DNA of 63,851 nucleotides, counting the filler. It is 4 parts of 4 records of this genome, joined end to end, with 100 filler letters (N's around TTAATTAATTAA, not from the genome) between each part and the next. Parts side by side here need not be neighbours in the genome. Positions count along the whole stretch, not along the records: positions 36,722 to 57,515 come from SRR20825006_435; 3 more parts are not named here. One strand, 5' to 3'. The notes beneath the pieces are model-generated. The model was not told the origin of the DNA, did no database searches, and saw only the letters and a program-made list of their open reading frames with translations. Both the position numbers and the translations under genes were made by a program. Positions 47,356 through 57,615 of the stretch are shown here, one piece after another (positions within the stretch are counted from its first letter, which is position 1; the number at the start of each line of letters is the position of its first letter).

Positions 47356-47580
47356 TCATGCTGCTTCATCGGGTGATGACGAAGCCGGTACGGTTTTAAC
47401 TGCTGACAGCAACCGGGGCAAAGCTATTCCCGTGTCCACGCTGATTTCGGCAACTAAGGCCCTAGGGATGCCCCGCGATCGCCAGTTGTAAACACCCATT
47501 GGCTGCTGATAACCAAAGCGCTCTTGCACGCCTTTAACGCCGCCATAGCACGAGATAACTTCGTCAATTATTTCATTCAT
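47356..47580 (-). CDS. cro: Cro-like repressor
   Basis: YGGVKGVQERFG...VYNWRSRGIP; divergent from the cI-like gene. Confidence 0.8.
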   Translation of the reverse strand: MNEIIDEVISCYGGVKGVQERFGYQQPMGVYNWRSRGIPRALVAEISVDTGIALPRLLSAVKTVPASSSPDEAA

Positions 47581-47661: not shown

Positions 47662-48051
47662 ATGAAAAAAGATAGAATCAGCCGAATAGAAGAATGGCGA
47701 CAGGATCAGGGCTTTAGCAAAGCTGATCTTGCGCGCTATTTTGGTGTTGATAGCCAGACGTACAACAACTGGACCTACCGCAACAGCCTTCCGAAAGAGT
47801 ATTACGACAGGGCTGAGCAAATTCTCTCTGGCAATGTCTCCGCTACCCGAGAAGGCAGAAAAACAATCTTAGCCGCCAAGCCACTAGAAGTAAGAGAAAG
47901 CTCTTGGACTTATGGCAACAATAAACAAAAATTTGACCTCAGCTCCCTCGACGAGCAAGAACTTGCAGAAGTAATGATCGCGGCGCTGTCTTCCCTCTCC
48001 CCTGCTGGTCGAAAGGCAATTCTTCAGGCGCTGATTGACGAGCTTCTATAA
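47662..48051 (+). CDS. CI-like XRE HTH repressor (no S24 peptidase domain)
   Basis: SKADLARYFGVDSQTYNNW HTH; 129 aa. Confidence 0.8.
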   Translation: MKKDRISRIEEWRQDQGFSKADLARYFGVDSQTYNNWTYRNSLPKEYYDRAEQILSGNVSATREGRKTILAAKPLEVRESSWTYGNNKQKFDLSSLDEQELAEVMIAALSSLSPAGRKAILQALIDELL

Positions 48052-51762: not shown

Positions 51763-52044
51763 ATGTCACAACACGCACCCAGTACAACCCAAAAAGCCCT
51801 GATCAAAGCGCTAGAGCGCGCCGGCACCGCTACGCAAGCCCAGCTCTGCCAGGCCGTAAACCGGCGCCCCGCCACCGTGTCCGCAGCCATGACCCAGCTA
51901 GAACAAGCGGGGCTCGTTAACGCCACATGGCAAGGCCGCCCACGCGAAAAACATTACCGACTACCCCAAGCCAAGAACGCGCGCCGCATCGCTCGCGGCC
52001 CTTGGATCAACCCTCAATGGATGGAGAAACCGCAATGGCTTTGA
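51763..52044 (+). CDS. MarR-like winged-helix protein
   Basis: [36 protein letters not shown]. Confidence 0.75.
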
Positions 52045-52223
52045 TACTCACCCGCCGCATTGGCGAAACCCTAATGGTCGGCGACGACGTCACCGTCACC
52101 GTGCTAGGCACCAAAGGCAACCAGGTGCGCCTGGGCGTAAACGCACCCAAGCACATCGCCGTGCACCGCGAGGAAATTTACGAGCGCGTGCAAGCAAACA
52201 CCAACAAGGACACCGCAGCATGA
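52035..52223 (+). CDS. csrA: Carbon storage regulator CsrA/RsmA homologue (phage-encoded)
   Basis: [52 protein letters not shown]. Confidence 0.95.
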
Positions 52224-52470: not shown

Positions 52471-52748
52471 AACCCATCGCCGTCTACCGGGGCACCACCA
52501 ACCACGATGGCAAATTCGTCGGCCCCATCCAGCACCCGGGTAAGCGCCGGTACCGCTACCGCGTAGACCTTTGGATAAAAACCGGCAACAGCGCCCTGCT
52601 GCGCGACGAAATCAGCACCAAAGAGCCCGTGCGCCTAAACGACCTGCTCCAAGACCAAGTGCTACCCAACATCGACAGCCTCATTGCCGAAGCCGACCAA
52701 GAAGGCGGCACCCAGCAATACGGCTTTGAAATTTATAAGTGGGGATAA
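52467..52748 (+). CDS. Hypothetical phage protein
   Basis: 93-aa ORF in the early operon. Confidence 0.6.
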   Translation: MKPIAVYRGTTNHDGKFVGPIQHPGKRRYRYRVDLWIKTGNSALLRDEISTKEPVRLNDLLQDQVLPNIDSLIAEADQEGGTQQYGFEIYKWG

Positions 52749-52749
52749 A

Positions 52750-53004
52750 ATGAGCCGCCTCGTGCCCGCCAGCAAATGGATAAACGAAACCTTTGAAGCC
52801 GGTGTATCCACCAAAACCGTCTACAACTGGGTAGCCAATCGCGTCATACCCGGCGTCATCCTCGACGGCAAACCCTTTGTAGACGCCGACAAAGCCGCCG
52901 TACTGCTGGATACCCACACCATCATCACCGCACCCAGCGCCACACCCGTCGACGGCGGCAACGCCACCGTTGCGCAGCTGGTGCAAGGCGGGCTAACCCA
53001 ATGA
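52750..53004 (+). CDS. Excisionase-like HTH protein
   Basis: WINETF..GVSTKTVYNWVANRVIPG...GKPFVD. Confidence 0.7.
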   Translation: MSRLVPASKWINETFEAGVSTKTVYNWVANRVIPGVILDGKPFVDADKAAVLLDTHTIITAPSATPVDGGNATVAQLVQGGLTQ

Positions 53005-53366
53005 CACACCACAACCGCATGCGATGCAGCGCCGAGACCTACCACCAAGCCATGAGCGACGCCCTGCAAAACACACGTGGCACAGATGACGTCTCATGGA
53101 ATAAAGATTTTAAGGCCTCGCTCATTCAGCGCGGCCTATGGCTCACCACCCAGCCTCCGGCGCGCAACACCGCCCTATACCCCAACGGAATGCCCTACCT
53201 AGCACCCCGTTGCTATGGCGCAAAAAACGGCTGGCCGCAAATTACCTATGTTGTATGGATGGTAGACGCCAGCAAAGCATCGCCGCCAACCTGGGTAACA
53301 GCGACACGAATAGGCTGCGCAGCGCTGCTGCTGGTAGCACTGGCTGCGCATTACCTTTTCAGTTGA
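53001..53366 (+). CDS. Hypothetical protein with C-terminal TM segment
   Basis: ATGA-coupled ORF. Confidence 0.6.
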   Translation: MTHHNRMRCSAETYHQAMSDALQNTRGTDDVSWNKDFKASLIQRGLWLTTQPPARNTALYPNGMPYLAPRCYGAKNGWPQITYVVWMVDASKASPPTWVTATRIGCAALLLVALAAHYLFS

Positions 53367-53394
53367 TGTGCATAATCTTGCCGAGGAATAGCTA

Positions 53395-53754
53395 ATGAAG
53401 GACGAATTTCTGGAGCAGTTGGCTGCACTATGCGAGCAATACAGCGCCACTTTTCGATACACCACCAATGACGACGGAATTCATATCGACGTTGGCGGCG
53501 AAGAGGTGTTCGCAGGATTCATGCTGACCGGCAAAGCAGCCGCAAGTGAGCTTCGTGCAGCAAAAAGGGATTTCGCCCGGAGAGCAGGCGACAACAAAGC
53601 AACCGATCAAATGATTGACCGGCTTATGCCGGACCCAGATGGAATATGCTGCCCTCTTTGCCACTATGACGGATGCTGGGACGGCACACCCAAAAGCGAA
53701 AGAAGAGGCGCAATCAGGGAGCTTCTAGAAAAAGCCTTTCGCGAGGAACCCTGA
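53395..53754 (+). CDS. Hypothetical protein; stop codon lies inside the distal attC
   Basis: GAGG RBS; CCPLC..C motif; TGA at 53752-53754. Confidence 0.65.
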   Translation: MKDEFLEQLAALCEQYSATFRYTTNDDGIHIDVGGEEVFAGFMLTGKAAASELRAAKRDFARRAGDNKATDQMIDRLMPDPDGICCPLCHYDGCWDGTPKSERRGAIRELLEKAFREEP

Positions 53755-53834
53755 ACACACGGGCAGGCAAAACGCGCAGCGGTTTGACTGTCCGACGGAG
53801 CGCAGCGGAGTGAACGTGCTGTGATTTGTTAAAA
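53743..53834 (-). repeat. attC site 4 (distal, 92 bp)
   Basis: Minus: TTTTAAC-AAATC-ACA(G)CACG ... CGTGTGT-TCAGG-GTTCCTC; extra base at L'' position 4. Confidence 0.85.
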
Positions 53835-53854
53835 CGCCGGATAAGGACTTGATT

Positions 53855-54055
53855 ATGAGTATTTGTAAGCACGGTACAGATTTAGATGATTACGACTGCA
53901 TGAACTGCGAAAACGAAGACGACCTGATAGCTGAAGCTGCTGGAGATATTCACCACCTGTACATGAATTGCGACGGCGGAGAGGTTCCGCAAATAGAGGA
54001 CATTACTAGAGTGCTGAATTCGCTCGTTGATAATTTGAGTGAAGAGGCGTTTTAA
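53855..54055 (+). CDS. Cassette A gene: small acidic Cys/His protein
   Basis: AAGGA RBS; CKH...CMNC; flanked by GTTAAAACGCC / GGCGTTTTAAC. Confidence 0.75.
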   Translation: MSICKHGTDLDDYDCMNCENEDDLIAEAAGDIHHLYMNCDGGEVPQIEDITRVLNSLVDNLSEEAF

Positions 54056-54121
54056 CCCGCAGGACAGCGGTGAGGAACGAAGCGCAGCGTAGAGACGATC
54101 CGCTGCTACTGATTGTTAAAT
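54050..54121 (-). repeat. attC site 3 (72 bp)
   Basis: Minus: ATTTAAC-AATCA-GTA(G)CAGCGG ... CCGCTGTCC-TGCGG-GTTAAAA. Confidence 0.85.
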
Positions 54122-54134
54122 GCAGGAATTTAAA

Positions 54135-54416
54135 ATGAAGAAACAAAGTAATCCGGCGCCACCGAAAAGCGTGAAGAGGCCGCCGCCCCCACCGGCACCG
54201 CCTCCGCCACGAAGCCCGACCGGGAAGGGAGCGAGCAGACGGCCCGAATTTGATGCTTACAGCAAAATGCTGGCCTGCATACCAACAACGTGGCTTGACC
54301 CGTTGCTGACAGGCCCACACAAGGTTTTGCCTGATGGATATAGCTACAGCCCAAAGGATGTTGAGCGACTGCTGCAGGCGATACGGCACCGCATGGAAAA
54401 AGCTGCGGGCATTTAA
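54135..54416 (+). CDS. Cassette B gene: protein with Pro-rich N-terminus
   Basis: AGGA RBS; RPPPPPAPPPPR; flanked by GTTAAATGC / GCATTTAAC. Confidence 0.7.
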   Translation: MKKQSNPAPPKSVKRPPPPPAPPPPRSPTGKGASRRPEFDAYSKMLACIPTTWLDPLLTGPHKVLPDGYSYSPKDVERLLQAIRHRMEKAAGI

Positions 54417-54536
54417 CCCTGAGTTTTGCGGCCTGCGGAAACGAACACACTGGAGACGATGATGAAGAACGAAACTACCGAGATTGAAACCGATGCGCCG
54501 ACCCAGCAGGTCGCGCCCAACAACGAGTTGTTATCG
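54411..54536 (-). repeat. attC site 2 (126 bp; contains start of cassette C gene)
   Basis: Minus: CGATAAC-AACTC-GTT(G)TTG..GCGACCTGC ... GCAGGCCGCAAAAC-TCAGG-GTTAAAT. Confidence 0.8.
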
Positions 54537-54749
54537 GGCTTTGCGACTGCCGAGGAATTGATTGGCTATTGCGAAATCCACTGCACTACAGAAAGAGCGC
54601 TGTTCAGCGGCAAGCAAATAATCGACATGTTGGTGCTCGCTGGCTACCGCGAGGACACTACGAGTCAGATCGATACGCAAGAGTGGATGTCGGTTCATGG
54701 CGACATGTCCCGCCTCTGCCGAATGGCTCGGGCACGGATGGCCCGATAA
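54459..54749 (+). CDS. Cassette C gene: hypothetical protein
   Basis: GGAG RBS at 54452 inside attC2; core pair GTTATCGGGC / GCCCGATAAC. Confidence 0.75.
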   Translation: MMKNETTEIETDAPTQQVAPNNELLSGFATAEELIGYCEIHCTTERALFSGKQIIDMLVLAGYREDTTSQIDTQEWMSVHGDMSRLCRMARARMAR

Positions 54750-54869
54750 CGACAAAGCTCAGGTGCGGCCAAAAGCCAGTCCTCTAACGAAGACTAGGAG
54801 ATTAAAGCTATGAAGAACTTTACGAAACCCGCGTTGCTTTTGGCCGTCGCCTGGAGCGCCTTGTTAGCG
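54744..54869 (-). repeat. attC site 1 (proximal, 126 bp; encodes signal peptide of cassette D gene)
   Basis: Minus: CGCTAAC-AAGGC-GCT(C)CAGG-CG(A)CGGCCAAAAGC ... GCTTTTGGCCGCA-CCTGAGC-TTTGTC-GTTATCG; canonical box spacing and extrahelical bases. Confidence 0.92.
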
Positions 54870-55073
54870 GGATGCACGAATGCAAATGACGCTCACAGGG
54901 CCCTGACCAATGCCGGGTATACAAACATCCAGACGGGCGGATATGACTGGTTTGCCTGCGGGAATGAAGATTTCTATGCGACAAAATTCAAGGCCACTAA
55001 CCCGGCAGGGAAGCAAGTAAGCGGTGTTGTTTGCTCTGGGCTGCTGTTCAAAAGTGCGACTATCAGGTTTTGA
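54810..55073 (+). CDS. Cassette D gene: small lipoprotein
   Basis: AGGAG RBS; lipobox LLAGC; GYDWFAC...VSGVVCSG; core pair GTTAGCGG / CCGCTAAC. Confidence 0.85.
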   Translation: MKNFTKPALLLAVAWSALLAGCTNANDAHRALTNAGYTNIQTGGYDWFACGNEDFYATKFKATNPAGKQVSGVVCSGLLFKSATIRF

Positions 55074-55110
55074 CCGCTAACCAGTGACTATCAAGCCAAA
55101 GGTCAGTTAA
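55074..55110 (-). other. Putative attI site (crossover G|TT at 55081/55080)
   Basis: GTTAGCG core on the minus strand 45 bp upstream of intI, with no attC hairpin behind it; extent of the site is a guess. Confidence 0.7.
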
Positions 55111-55125
55111 CGCCGGGAGGCAGCT

Positions 55126-56094
55126 ATGAAAGGCAAGGATTTACTACAACAATCAGACCATAAAATGCGGTTTCTTGGGTACTCAAGAGCCACCCGCCGT
55201 AGCTACCTTGGCTGGCTGGCGCAGTATTTCCGTTGGTGCCTGGAAAACCCGACCGGCACAAGCGAGGAAAAAGCCCAGCGCTTTCTGACCCATTTGGCTG
55301 TTGCCCGCACCGTTAGCAGATCAACTCAGCACCAGGCGCTATGTGCCGTGGCATGGTTTTACAAACACATGGCCGCCCAGCCCCTTGGCAACATTGGTCA
55401 ATTCGTCAATACCGCTCGAGGCAGCAAGCTACCCGCCGTGCTATCACAAGACGAGATGCGCCGTTTGCTGGCCGCAATGCGTGGGCAAAACTGGCTCATT
55501 GCTTCCGTGATGTACGGCGGTGGATTGCGACTCACCGAAGCCCTTTCGCTGCGCGTCAAAGACGTAGACGTTGGTCGCCAGCAGGTAACCGTGCGCCAGG
55601 GCAAGGGAAACAAGGATCGCACCACCACCCTATCCAGCTCGATTAGCCAGCAAATTTTGGCCCAGGTAGAGCGCGTTGAACACCAGCATCAACAAGACAT
55701 CGCGGCCGGCTTTGGCGAAGTCTACCTGCCCAATGCCATCGCAAAAAAATACCCCAACGCCCACCGACAAACCGCATGGCAGTACCTTTTCCCCGCCAGC
55801 AAGATCGGAGCATGCCCCGATACCGGCGCACTGCGTCGCCACCACGTGCACCCTACCGCCTTCACCAAAGCGCTAAGGGCCGCAAAAAAGGCGGCGAAGA
55901 TCAACAAACACTTCACCGCCCACGCCCTTCGCCATAGCTTCGCCACACACATGCTGGAGAACGGCGCCGATATCCGCACCGTGCAAGAGCTACTAGGTCA
56001 CAAAGACGTATCGACCACAATGATCTACACGCACGTGATGCAAAAGCACCACGTGCGCAGCCCACTGGAGGCTATAAGCGCCTGCGCAAGTTGA
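55126..56094 (+). CDS. intI: Integron integrase
   Basis: YSRATRRSY, FLTHLA, STQHQAL, LPAVLS, YGGGLR, GKGNKDR, IntI-specific insert EVYLPNAIAKKYPNA..WQYLFPA..RRHH, HALRHSFATH, LLGH, TMIYTHV. Confidence 0.95.
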   Translation: MKGKDLLQQSDHKMRFLGYSRATRRSYLGWLAQYFRWCLENPTGTSEEKAQRFLTHLAVARTVSRSTQHQALCAVAWFYKHMAAQPLGNIGQFVNTARGSKLPAVLSQDEMRRLLAAMRGQNWLIASVMYGGGLRLTEALSLRVKDVDVGRQQVTVRQGKGNKDRTTTLSSSISQQILAQVERVEHQHQQDIAAGFGEVYLPNAIAKKYPNAHRQTAWQYLFPASKIGACPDTGALRRHHVHPTAFTKALRAAKKAAKINKHFTAHALRHSFATHMLENGADIRTVQELLGHKDVSTTMIYTHVMQKHHVRSPLEAISACAS

Positions 56095-56154
56095 CAGCAC
56101 GCCGCCCCACTGACCACTATAAATCCACCACCACACAGCACGGATACCCACGGA

Positions 56155-57393
56155 ATGGCCAGGAAACGCATCGTAGACGGGCTGGAGCTGCCCGAAAACC
56201 TCTACCAGACCCCGCGCAAGGAACCCGGCAAATGGCGCTACAAACGCCCCGATGGCAGCTTCTACACCTTCACCGCGACCACGCAAGACGCCATCGCCGC
56301 CGCGCAAGGCCTCAATGCACAGTTCGCCGCGGGCGCCAAAGTCACCCCAGCCACCAATCCGCAGTACGGCCGCCTCAGCATTCGCCGGCACGTCGAAGAC
56401 TTTATCGACGAGCGCGAGAAGCGCGAACCCAGCCTGCGCAACAAAACCAGCTGGGGCAATCGCAAAGCCTACCTGCGCAGCTACGCCACCCTAAATGCTG
56501 GAAAATCCGTCTCGCAAATCACCTTGCTCGACGTGCAAGCCTGGTGGGACACCCTCACCGGCCACGCCCAGCGCAGCCGACAACCCGAATTTCGCCGGTT
56601 CTTCAACCACCTGCTGGCACGCGGCCTTTGCCCAAAACTTGATGCCAACCCCTTCAGCAGCAGCGACGCCGCACCACGAGTGGAAATGTCAGCCAAGCCA
56701 GCCAAACAGCGCCTGCGCCTCTCTCAAGAGCAATTCTGGCTTATCTACAACCAGGCAGGGGAAAAATACCCATTCCTGCAGATCGCCATGGCCATTAGCC
56801 TCATCACCACCCTACGCCGAGGCGATATCTGCGACCTACAATTCGACGAACATGTGGTCGGCAATCTGCTCAGAAAGCAGATCAACAAAAGCCACGCCCA
56901 GCTCAGCAAAGAATTTGAGCGCCGAGGCGGCAAGGCCGACCCAGCCAACCTAAGCTGGGACCTCAACAAACACCCCCTACTGCGCCAAGTCATCAACCGC
57001 GCCCGCGAACTCAGCCTCAGCCACCAGCGCTGCCCCAGCCTACTCAGCCACAAATACAAACGCCGCTACAAAAGCCAACATCGCAGCCACCCTTACCAGG
57101 TACTACCAAAATTCCTGAGCGACGCCTTCGCCGAGATCCGCGACGAAACCACAGACACAAACGGCAAGAAGCTCTTCGCCGACGTCCAACCAAAGCACCG
57201 CCCCACCTTCCACGAAGTCCGAAGCCTCGCTGGCGACATCTACGCCAACGCAGGCTACACCAAAGCCCAAATCCGAGAGCTCTACGCCCACACAGACGAA
57301 AGCACCACCGAGCGATACCTCAGCGGACACAGTGAAAAATGGCAGGAAATGGACCTCATCATGCCCACAGACGCACTAAGCGGACAATTCTGA
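56155..57393 (+). CDS. int: Prophage tyrosine integrase
   Basis: N-terminal arm-binding region (LPENLY..WRYKRPDG), LRRGDI, PTFHEVRSLA, HT...TERY; adjacent to a tRNA end. Confidence 0.9.
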   Translation: MARKRIVDGLELPENLYQTPRKEPGKWRYKRPDGSFYTFTATTQDAIAAAQGLNAQFAAGAKVTPATNPQYGRLSIRRHVEDFIDEREKREPSLRNKTSWGNRKAYLRSYATLNAGKSVSQITLLDVQAWWDTLTGHAQRSRQPEFRRFFNHLLARGLCPKLDANPFSSSDAAPRVEMSAKPAKQRLRLSQEQFWLIYNQAGEKYPFLQIAMAISLITTLRRGDICDLQFDEHVVGNLLRKQINKSHAQLSKEFERRGGKADPANLSWDLNKHPLLRQVINRARELSLSHQRCPSLLSHKYKRRYKSQHRSHPYQVLPKFLSDAFAEIRDETTDTNGKKLFADVQPKHRPTFHEVRSLAGDIYANAGYTKAQIRELYAHTDESTTERYLSGHSEKWQEMDLIMPTDALSGQF

Positions 57394-57515: not shown

Positions 57516-57615
57516 NNNNNNNNNNNNNNNNNNNNNNNNNNNNNNNNNNNNNNNNNNNNTTAATTAATTAANNNNNNNNNNNNNNNNNNNNNNNNNNNNN
57601 NNNNNNNNNNNNNNN
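57516..57615. other. Artificial contig spacer
   Basis: N-run + TTAATTAATTAA + N-run. Confidence 0.98.

Follow-up and report, generated by a model that had tools for sequence, protein, structure and literature searches.

In the integron model, the choice of attC strand serves to place promoterless cassette genes in sense to the cassette promoter Pc. Does an integron carried by a phage keep to this rule? The question is raised by a window of 63,851 nt (the whole stretch of DNA analysed, four joined records of one genome), in which the right-hand end of a prophage holds, all on the plus strand, a run of small genes, four open reading frames (ORFs A to D), the integron integrase gene intI and the phage integrase gene int. 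Four cassettes occupy 53749-55080, and in each of them the gene appears to lie antisense to its own attC site. The comparisons with related arrays support the cassettes of the window and of its IntI clade as a distinct class with all genes antisense to attC, and the window thus seems to represent a phage-carried integron lineage that uniformly breaks the sense-to-Pc rule. The explanation that we favour as a whole, and regard as fairly probable, is that the locus is a complete integron inside a temperate phage, lying between the last genes of the early operon and int.

Orientation of attC sites and cassette genes

The intI gene (55126-56094, plus strand) encodes a full-length integron integrase of 322 amino acids, a tyrosine recombinase that scores 367 bits against TIGR02249 (cutoff 265) and covers profile positions 2-314 of 315. 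The product can be aligned with IntI1 over its whole length (39% identity), the additional domain inserted specifically in IntI proteins included, and the catalytic residues (R, K, H-x-x-R, H, Y) were read by eye from the same alignment.

The strand of the attC sites was read with a geometry scanner, the pattern of which was taken on the gene strand from the three class 1 attC sites of locus L101 (cassettes dfrA12, aadA2 and an unannotated one between them). All three sites follow the top-strand order RYYYAAC, 5 nt, an 8-nt L'', a 7-nt L', 6 nt and GTTRRRY, the extra base being the fourth base of L'' (3/3), and the scanner returned all three, each time on the gene strand, with nothing on the opposite one. 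Upstream of intI in 69 IntI loci, 66 matches had the top strand opposite intI and 8 the other polarity; downstream the counts were 12 and 9, which is background. As both the class 1 control and the counts over the 69 loci are polarised in this way, we take attC geometry to tell the strand. The calibration agrees with the extrahelical-base rule given in the sections of Nivina et al. 2016 (PMC5027507) covered here, by which the AAC arm carries the extrahelical bases of the top strand, those of the bottom strand, which is the one recombined, being on the other arm. It should be noted that 10/68 calibrator attC sites measure 55-80 nt, the others coming from a few homogeneous arrays.

Applied to the array, the scan gave three matches, every one of which has its top strand on the minus strand; the other polarity gave none. 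A relaxed scan of the whole 63.8-kb window gave 14 matches; at the density outside the array (0.088 per kb per strand) about 0.12 would be expected by chance in 1.4 kb, against the three found on one strand.

The initial annotation had assigned all four attC sites to the minus strand and had given the positions of their R' cores, and both assignments stand, sites 1-3 by calibrated geometry and site 0 by homology together with a contig lacking cassette A (run X1, below). The attC make-up, that is R''/L''/L'/R' boxes with an extra base in L'' and a length of 57-141 nt, was likewise recognised in three of the four by the scan and in site 0 by homology and deletion. Site 0 (53743-53834, 92 nt, cassette A) has R' at 53743-53749, reading GAGGAAC on the plus strand as do the cores quoted below, and R'' at 53828-53834; by alignment it is homologous to L021 1601-1660 and to sites in L106, relative to which it carries a 32-nt insertion, and its placement comes from this homology and the contig, not from geometry. 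Site 1 (54050-54121, 72 nt, cassette B; core TTTTAAC, 54050-54056) has six of seven L-box pairs and 5/5 spacers, and its extra base lies by eye on the GTT arm of the plus strand (T, 6 bp, extra base). Site 2 (54411-54536, 126 nt, cassette C; core ATTTAAC, 54411-54417) also has six of seven L-box pairs and 5/5 spacers. It belongs to a family of 126-134 nt with conserved ends, found again at L107 417-547 and L021 1237-1370, in which two L-box pairs show compensatory changes (G-C to A-T and T-A to C-G). Site 3 (54744-54869, 126 nt, cassette D; core CGATAAC, 54744-54750) pairs at seven of seven L-box and three of four R-box positions with the canonical 5/6 spacers. It forms one long hairpin closed by AAC/GTT (z -3.03; 1/200 shuffles folds as well), with the ribosome-binding site and start of gene D in the loop.

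The claimed placement of the sites was thus right as to strand and cores; sites 2 and 3, 126 nt long each, extend beyond the intergenic gaps to which they had been taken to be limited and run into ORFs C and D. Folds of the short intergenic gaps gave no AAC/GTT hairpins for these two sites and were misleading for that very reason. Of the gapped attC arms, a repeat search of the array picked up only an 11-nt perfect inverted repeat in site 3 (54766-76 and 54836-46).

On the plus strand each cassette reads attC first and gene second, and the gene ends at the next crossover or just past it. Cassette A (53749-54055) has site 0 followed by ORF A (53855-54055, 66 amino acids), the TAA stop of which (54053-55) lies inside the next R' core. 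Cassette B (54056-54416) has site 1 and ORF B (54135-54416, 93 amino acids, with a proline-rich N-terminus), stopping with TAA at 54414-16 inside the R' core of site 2; cassette C (54417-54749) has site 2 and ORF C (54459-54749, 96 amino acids), stopping with TAA at 54747-49, again in a core. The stops of A, B and C are thus the TAA of TAA|C, formed by the crossover core itself as the initial annotation had noted. Cassette D (54750-55080) has site 3 and ORF D (54810-55073, 87 amino acids, a predicted lipoprotein with a lipobox read by eye). Its stop (55071-73) was correctly placed right before a core, which is however that of attI and not of an attC.

The plus strand assignment of all four ORFs, also made earlier, is borne out by the ORF map, by the match of ORF D to phrog_902 (E 6e-25) and by the viral homologues of the core of ORF C. 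A Shine-Dalgarno-like motif was seen by eye before each of the four. On the minus strand, the long ORFs cross cassette boundaries (54006-54389, 127 amino acids; 54130-54450, 106 amino acids; 54531-54755, 74 amino acids), and the two that stay wholly within a cassette are both in D (54820-54984, 54 amino acids; 54864-55016, 50 amino acids). GC content by codon position did not clearly separate the strands in the array and was given no weight. Judged by these features, the plus-strand cassette ORFs are real genes, and the number on the top strand of their attC, as expected of genes read from a Pc near attI, is 0/4 here.

Further, two of the attC sites encode the N-terminus of their own gene, which makes the window a testable case for cassette birth. 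In cassette C the ribosome-binding site, start codon and first 26 or so codons of the ORF fall within site 2; in cassette D, site 3 covers the ribosome-binding site and start of the ORF together with its signal-peptide codons (about 20 codons). Residues 30-96 of ORF C correspond to a phage protein; its relatives in two viral contigs align only from residue 30-32 on and begin 5-12 residues ahead of the shared motif, hence the roughly 25 N-terminal residues of C are an extension encoded by site 2. Relatives of ORF D occur in 20 viral contigs, in none of which an attC-like match abuts the gene, and so they yield no further junctions. No match to Pfam, NCBIfam or PHROGs was obtained for ORFs A, B or C or for genes Y and Z to the left of the array, and ESM Atlas gave no usable match for ORF B or C; relatives of A and B were absent from the family searches, and those of B from the viral contigs.

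In other arrays, too, the beginning of a gene, with its ribosome-binding site, its start codon and as many as about 26 codons, lies inside its own long attC; besides sites 2 and 3 this was seen in L107 417-547, L021 1237-1370 and L109 392-480. In one attC family, three unrelated proteins have an N-N-[D/E]-L-L-like stretch that the R''/L'' arm imposes on them.

We extended the comparison to the relatives of the window IntI. Eight IntIs at least 52% identical to it, a clade chosen by identity to the query, form one group with an SH-like approximate likelihood ratio (SH-aLRT) of 99 in a quick IQ-TREE run of 67 rows, 7/74 rows having been dropped for stops in the translated range. A tally of ORF against attC orientation across related arrays had been suggested by the initial annotation. 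In the seven arrays with upstream sequence, all 17 complete cassettes have the ORF antisense to the attC top strand (window 4, L021 4, L109 4, L107 2 and L108, L106 and L022 1 each; L105, a duplicate of L021, was not counted, and L110 has too little upstream sequence), so that genes in the classical sense number 0/17 in the clade. A second IntI clade, comprising L001-L006 (IMG/VR viral contigs), L061, L139 and L152, has the same layout, its attI being conserved on the right-hand side of AA|C, with plus-strand genes upstream; in L061, six of seven plus-strand ORFs end in TAA|C and two attC matches have the top strand on the minus strand. The attI of this second clade shares a TATCAACCC-like motif with the L022 and L106-L110 arrays.

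In the remaining IntI loci the sense orientation dominates. An automatic tally of 93 loci, 58 of them with a match, gave 84 sense, 6 inverted and 30 unclear cassettes with 15 skipped; at least three locus pairs are the same contig twice, by which the 84 is inflated by at least 8. The earlier statements that inverted ORFs are a minority elsewhere and that the cassettes of the window form a class apart thus both gain from the wider comparison, the latter from the 17/17 count, the SH-aLRT value and the second clade.

Crossover positions and cassette exchange

The attI site (55075-55125) lies immediately upstream of intI, which starts 45 nt from the last cassette boundary. Its core is CGCTAAC (55075-55081), with the crossover at 55080|55081, TAA|C on the plus strand and G|TT on the minus strand, so that the locus has its attI beside the start of intI and takes in cassettes at G|TT. 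The eight arrays of the clade are conserved on the right of TAA|C, and each differs from the others on the left. In six of the eight (L022 and L106-L110) the right end of the conserved part lacks a GTT, and this part is therefore attI and not an attC.

Three independent lines place the crossover of every cassette at the left-hand AA|C on the plus strand (G|TT on the minus strand), namely the attC geometry, the presence of one cassette in three arrays and near-identical prophages that swap arrays at attI. For the second line, gene L021a (L021 729-998) recurs in L108 and L109, arrays whose IntIs are only 52-53% identical to that of the window. Over the 120-130 nt or so compared, the DNA is identical in L108 and differs in L109 by one base just before AAC; by alignment the three loci match up to AAC and diverge from the next base on, in the attC as well as in the next gene. 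The attC to the right of the gene does not travel with it, therefore a cassette is attC and then gene on the plus strand. The stop of L021a in L021 (986-998) and L108 (115-126) is a TGA supplied by the spacer of the neighbour (CCTGA), and in L109 (125-181) the frame continues for 19 further codons. The last gene of L108 reads through attI to the intI start.

The third line comes from contigs of four public metagenome runs (X1, X3, X4 and X5) compared over 52700-56200. The X3 and X5 prophages differ from the window at 5-11 positions per 303 nt of left flank and at 37-40 per 1123 nt over attI and intI, and their content between 53002 and 55078 is entirely unlike that of the window, apart from shared attC sites; the X3, X4 and X5 contigs all regain homology at 55078. 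X3 shares with the array only a site-1-like attC (54052-54118), and the attC of this kind stands between different genes in X3 and X4. X5 shares only a site-2-like attC, which matches exactly 54414-54533, from R' to R'', and nothing on either side. Finally, one X1 contig joins 53746 to 54054, so that 307 nt are absent (with 5 ambiguous bases), which is cassette A exactly. Another metagenome contig repeats 54053-54118 in tandem.

These junctions bear on the possibility that we have read the strand the wrong way round, the attC sites being plus-oriented in classical gene-then-attC cassettes and the true attI lying at the left end of the array. Such a reading would account for the TAAC core directly after each plus-strand gene, as in many classical cassettes, and for the right-hand core of site 1, GTTAAAT, which fits GTTRRRY perfectly on the plus strand. 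It is contradicted by the junctions of L021a, where identity stops at AAC and the attC to the right differs in the three arrays, and by the X1 deletion, the 307 nt of which equal the distance between two left-hand cores where the opposite polarity, with right-hand cores, predicts 287 nt. The conserved attI lacking GTT at its right end in L022 and L106-L110 and the extra base on the GTT arm of the plus strand speak against it as well, and we regard it as very improbable. With the R' crossover at the intI-distal end of each cassette, the attC top strand is therefore the minus strand and the recombinogenic bottom strand the plus strand; read from these junctions, the attC top strands are canonical relative to intI.

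It could also be argued that the integron is a relic, captured once and now dead, and that its orientation stems from a single accident of inversion or capture. No IntI was found among 61 genomes of the host genus, where the best match is at Xer level (E 2.5e-24), one X1 contig keeps attI and the start of int without the 949 nt at 55137-56085, which is nearly the whole of intI, and site 2 folds poorly. On the other hand, the IntI of the window is intact, near-identical prophages carry different arrays bounded exactly at attI, cassette A is precisely missing from one contig, an identical cassette occurs in arrays with IntIs only about 52-54% identical to that of the window, and the layout is common to the whole IntI clade and to a second one. 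We therefore find the relic improbable. By sequence the cassettes are mobile, as seen from the one found in three arrays, the absence of cassette A and the replacement of whole arrays, and the integron is apparently active, or was so recently.

Expression and a probable phage operon

The gene direction shared with the phage, also pointed out by the initial annotation, extends well beyond the array. All credible genes from about 47.7 kb to 57.4 kb, through int, are on the plus strand in the ORF maps, and the cassette genes are co-directional with the phage genes and with intI. At the left end of this run a repressor-like gene (47662-48051, plus strand) diverges from a cro-like gene (47356-47580, minus strand), the matches of this regulatory pair (phrog_8008 and phrog_4) both being weak. 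At the right end, directly 3' of intI, int (56155-57393, plus strand) encodes a lambda-type phage tyrosine integrase (PF00589, phrog_1); the order intI-int is repeated in L107, whose Int is 66% identical to that of the window. One of 22 terminator-like sites between 45.5 and 57.6 kb is on the plus strand, a weak one, and none on that strand lies between cassettes.

Scans found no plus-strand sigma-70-like site in 53.7-55.1 kb and no conserved Pc-like site. The same scans missed the known class 1 Pc of the control locus, and we consider the blank results uninformative for this reason. A canonical LexA box (CTGT-N8-ACAG) was not found before intI. The simplest reading of the arrangement seems to be that cassettes, intI and int form the tail of a phage operon, and the sequence is consistent with expression of the cassettes from an upstream phage promoter.

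Alternatively, each cassette might bring its own promoter, as toxin-antitoxin cassettes and phage morons do, and would then not depend on the phage operon for its expression in the lysogen. Known inverted cassettes of chromosomal integrons usually bring their own promoters, and a toxin-antitoxin cassette in a Vibrio phage array is an example in the sections of Qi et al. 2023 (PMC9892861) covered here. Relatives of ORF D elsewhere are ordinary genes followed by terminator-like hairpins, and belong to a phage lipoprotein family. Against this stand the scans of the array, which found neither the plus-strand promoter-like nor the terminator-like sites that a moron would have but are a weak test, the control Pc having been missed too, and the gaps before the genes, which measure 42-100 nt and are taken up by attC. 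We judge autonomous expression unlikely, though clearly less so than the two readings weighed above.

Under the reading that we prefer, the cassettes would lack promoters of their own and would be transcribed with intI and int as the tail of a long plus-strand phage operon. Cargo and integrase would be made together on infection or induction, and a classical Pc pointing away from intI would have no role. Such cassettes may constitute a pool exchanged among phages, with Lar and Dam among the cargo of relatives. Logically, ordinary host cassettes would be silent in this array, as had been proposed, and those of the window would be silent under a host Pc. A transcript from the phage early promoter, also proposed by the initial annotation, would reverse the usual expression gradient.

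Several points weigh against this reading. The geometry of site 0 is ambiguous (scores 5 against 5.5), and the minimum-energy fold of site 2 is weak (z -0.92). A second strand test, which follows Nivina et al. 2016 in comparing fold and composition, is weakly in favour over the 17 clade sites: the plus strand is the stabler one in 13/17, by 0.9 kcal/mol on average, and G-rich in 12/17. On the bottom strand the extra base is more often C than G, the textbook base, a preference that the environmental calibrators likewise show. The promoter scans located none on either strand. The 17/17 tally is a by-eye curation of seven arrays that are kin and not independent and, as the main caveat, the junctions from the runs rest on single assembled metagenome contigs.

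A broader view, which we offer tentatively as a possibility rather than an expectation, is that integrons of temperate phages exchange genes as a system apart and draw on a cassette pool of their own, which is written on the bottom strand, the recombinogenic one. Early phage transcription would then express cargo and intI, and would at the same time free the attC bottom strand, which is the non-template strand, so that infection or induction, instead of LexA control, would switch shuffling on. Phages would trade the cargo with one another as an arsenal against host defences, and the attC RNA hairpin around the start codon would set the translation of each gene.

Known systems, cargo and neighbouring features

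The window shares with classical integrons (class 1 and the sedentary chromosomal ones, e.g. that of Vibrio cholerae) an IntI with the integron-specific insertion, an attI directly upstream of intI, the R''/L''/L'/R' boxes with the extra base in L'', the G|TT crossover, attC top strands opposite intI and cassettes mobile between arrays. It differs in that the genes are all on the attC bottom strand, pointing to intI, that the attC precedes the gene and may encode its start, and that intI runs in the direction of the cassettes within a probable phage operon; no canonical LexA box lies before intI, and no Pc was found by scans that also missed the control Pc.

Phage-borne integrons and clusters of attC sites lacking a neighbouring integrase (CALINs) have already been published (Qi et al. 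2023, PMC9892861); here intI adjoins the array, which is thus no CALIN. In the sections of that paper covered here, the Shewanella prophage M16-3 has, like the window, an integron integrase and attC cassettes in a phage genome; unlike the window, its IntI is of host type (95.3% identical to the IntI of S. oneidensis MR-1), a LexA site is present and the cassette genes are divergent from intI. These text sections contain no mention of genes antisense to attC. In the literature covered we found no description of arrays with every gene antisense to attC; the figures and supplementary tables of Qi et al. 2023 lay outside this coverage and may show the orientation in phage CALINs.

The inverted integron-integrase group (Treponema and others), as described in the covered part of Cury et al. 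2016 (PMC4889954), resembles the window in that intI and cassette genes are co-directional. In that group it is intI that is turned, whereas in the window the genes are turned within the cassettes and intI remains opposite the attC top strands (intI plus, attC top strands minus). Single inverted cassettes of chromosomal integrons, e.g. toxin-antitoxin ones, also carry a gene antisense to attC; they are a minority with their own promoters, whereas here the whole array and the whole IntI clade are inverted. Cassette orientation is not fixed, and phage cassettes may be wrongly assigned by tools that find integrons by expecting genes upstream of attC.

The usual chromosomal neighbours of the Vibrio integron are rplT, rpmI, infC and thrS. 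Beside these same four genes lies the IntI match of L103, the Vibrio phage Va_90-11-286_p16. According to the sections covered of Qi et al. 2023 (PMC9892861), the integron of this phage is a phage-carried fragment of the host chromosomal one.

Phages appear to have exchangeable gene sets of their own, which in related arrays include one Lar restriction alleviation cassette (PF14354, 42.1 bits) and one Dam methyltransferase cassette (PF05869, 42.6 bits). Both Lar and Dam are anti-restriction proteins. Methyltransferases are also among the phage-borne cassettes in the covered sections of Qi et al. 2023 (PMC9892861). Should the operon reading be true, the integrase would be tied to the lytic/lysogenic switch of the phage.

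To the left of the array, genes Y and Z (53001-53754, plus strand) lie within the zone that varies among related prophages, which diverge from the window at 53002, and neither is accompanied by an attC. Before them stands a single GGCTAAC core (52991-52997), which overlaps the end of the ORF before Y; no GTT was found within about 140 nt after it. Y and Z may be a cassette that has lost its site, or may mark the outer limit of integron insertion. The stop of Z is a TGA in the spacer of the neighbouring attC (53749-53754).

No tRNA was found in the window, and masked bases (N) at about 57540-57600 lie just past int, where the prophage end or attachment site is expected. Between intI and int (56082-56126) a near-LexA box (CTGC-N8-ACAG) overlaps TTGACA and TATAAA 21 nt apart, and we speculate that int may have a regulated promoter of its own here. 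The phage also encodes a CsrA-like regulator (52035-52223; phrog_9500, E 1.5e-30), which lies upstream of the array at a distance of a few genes.

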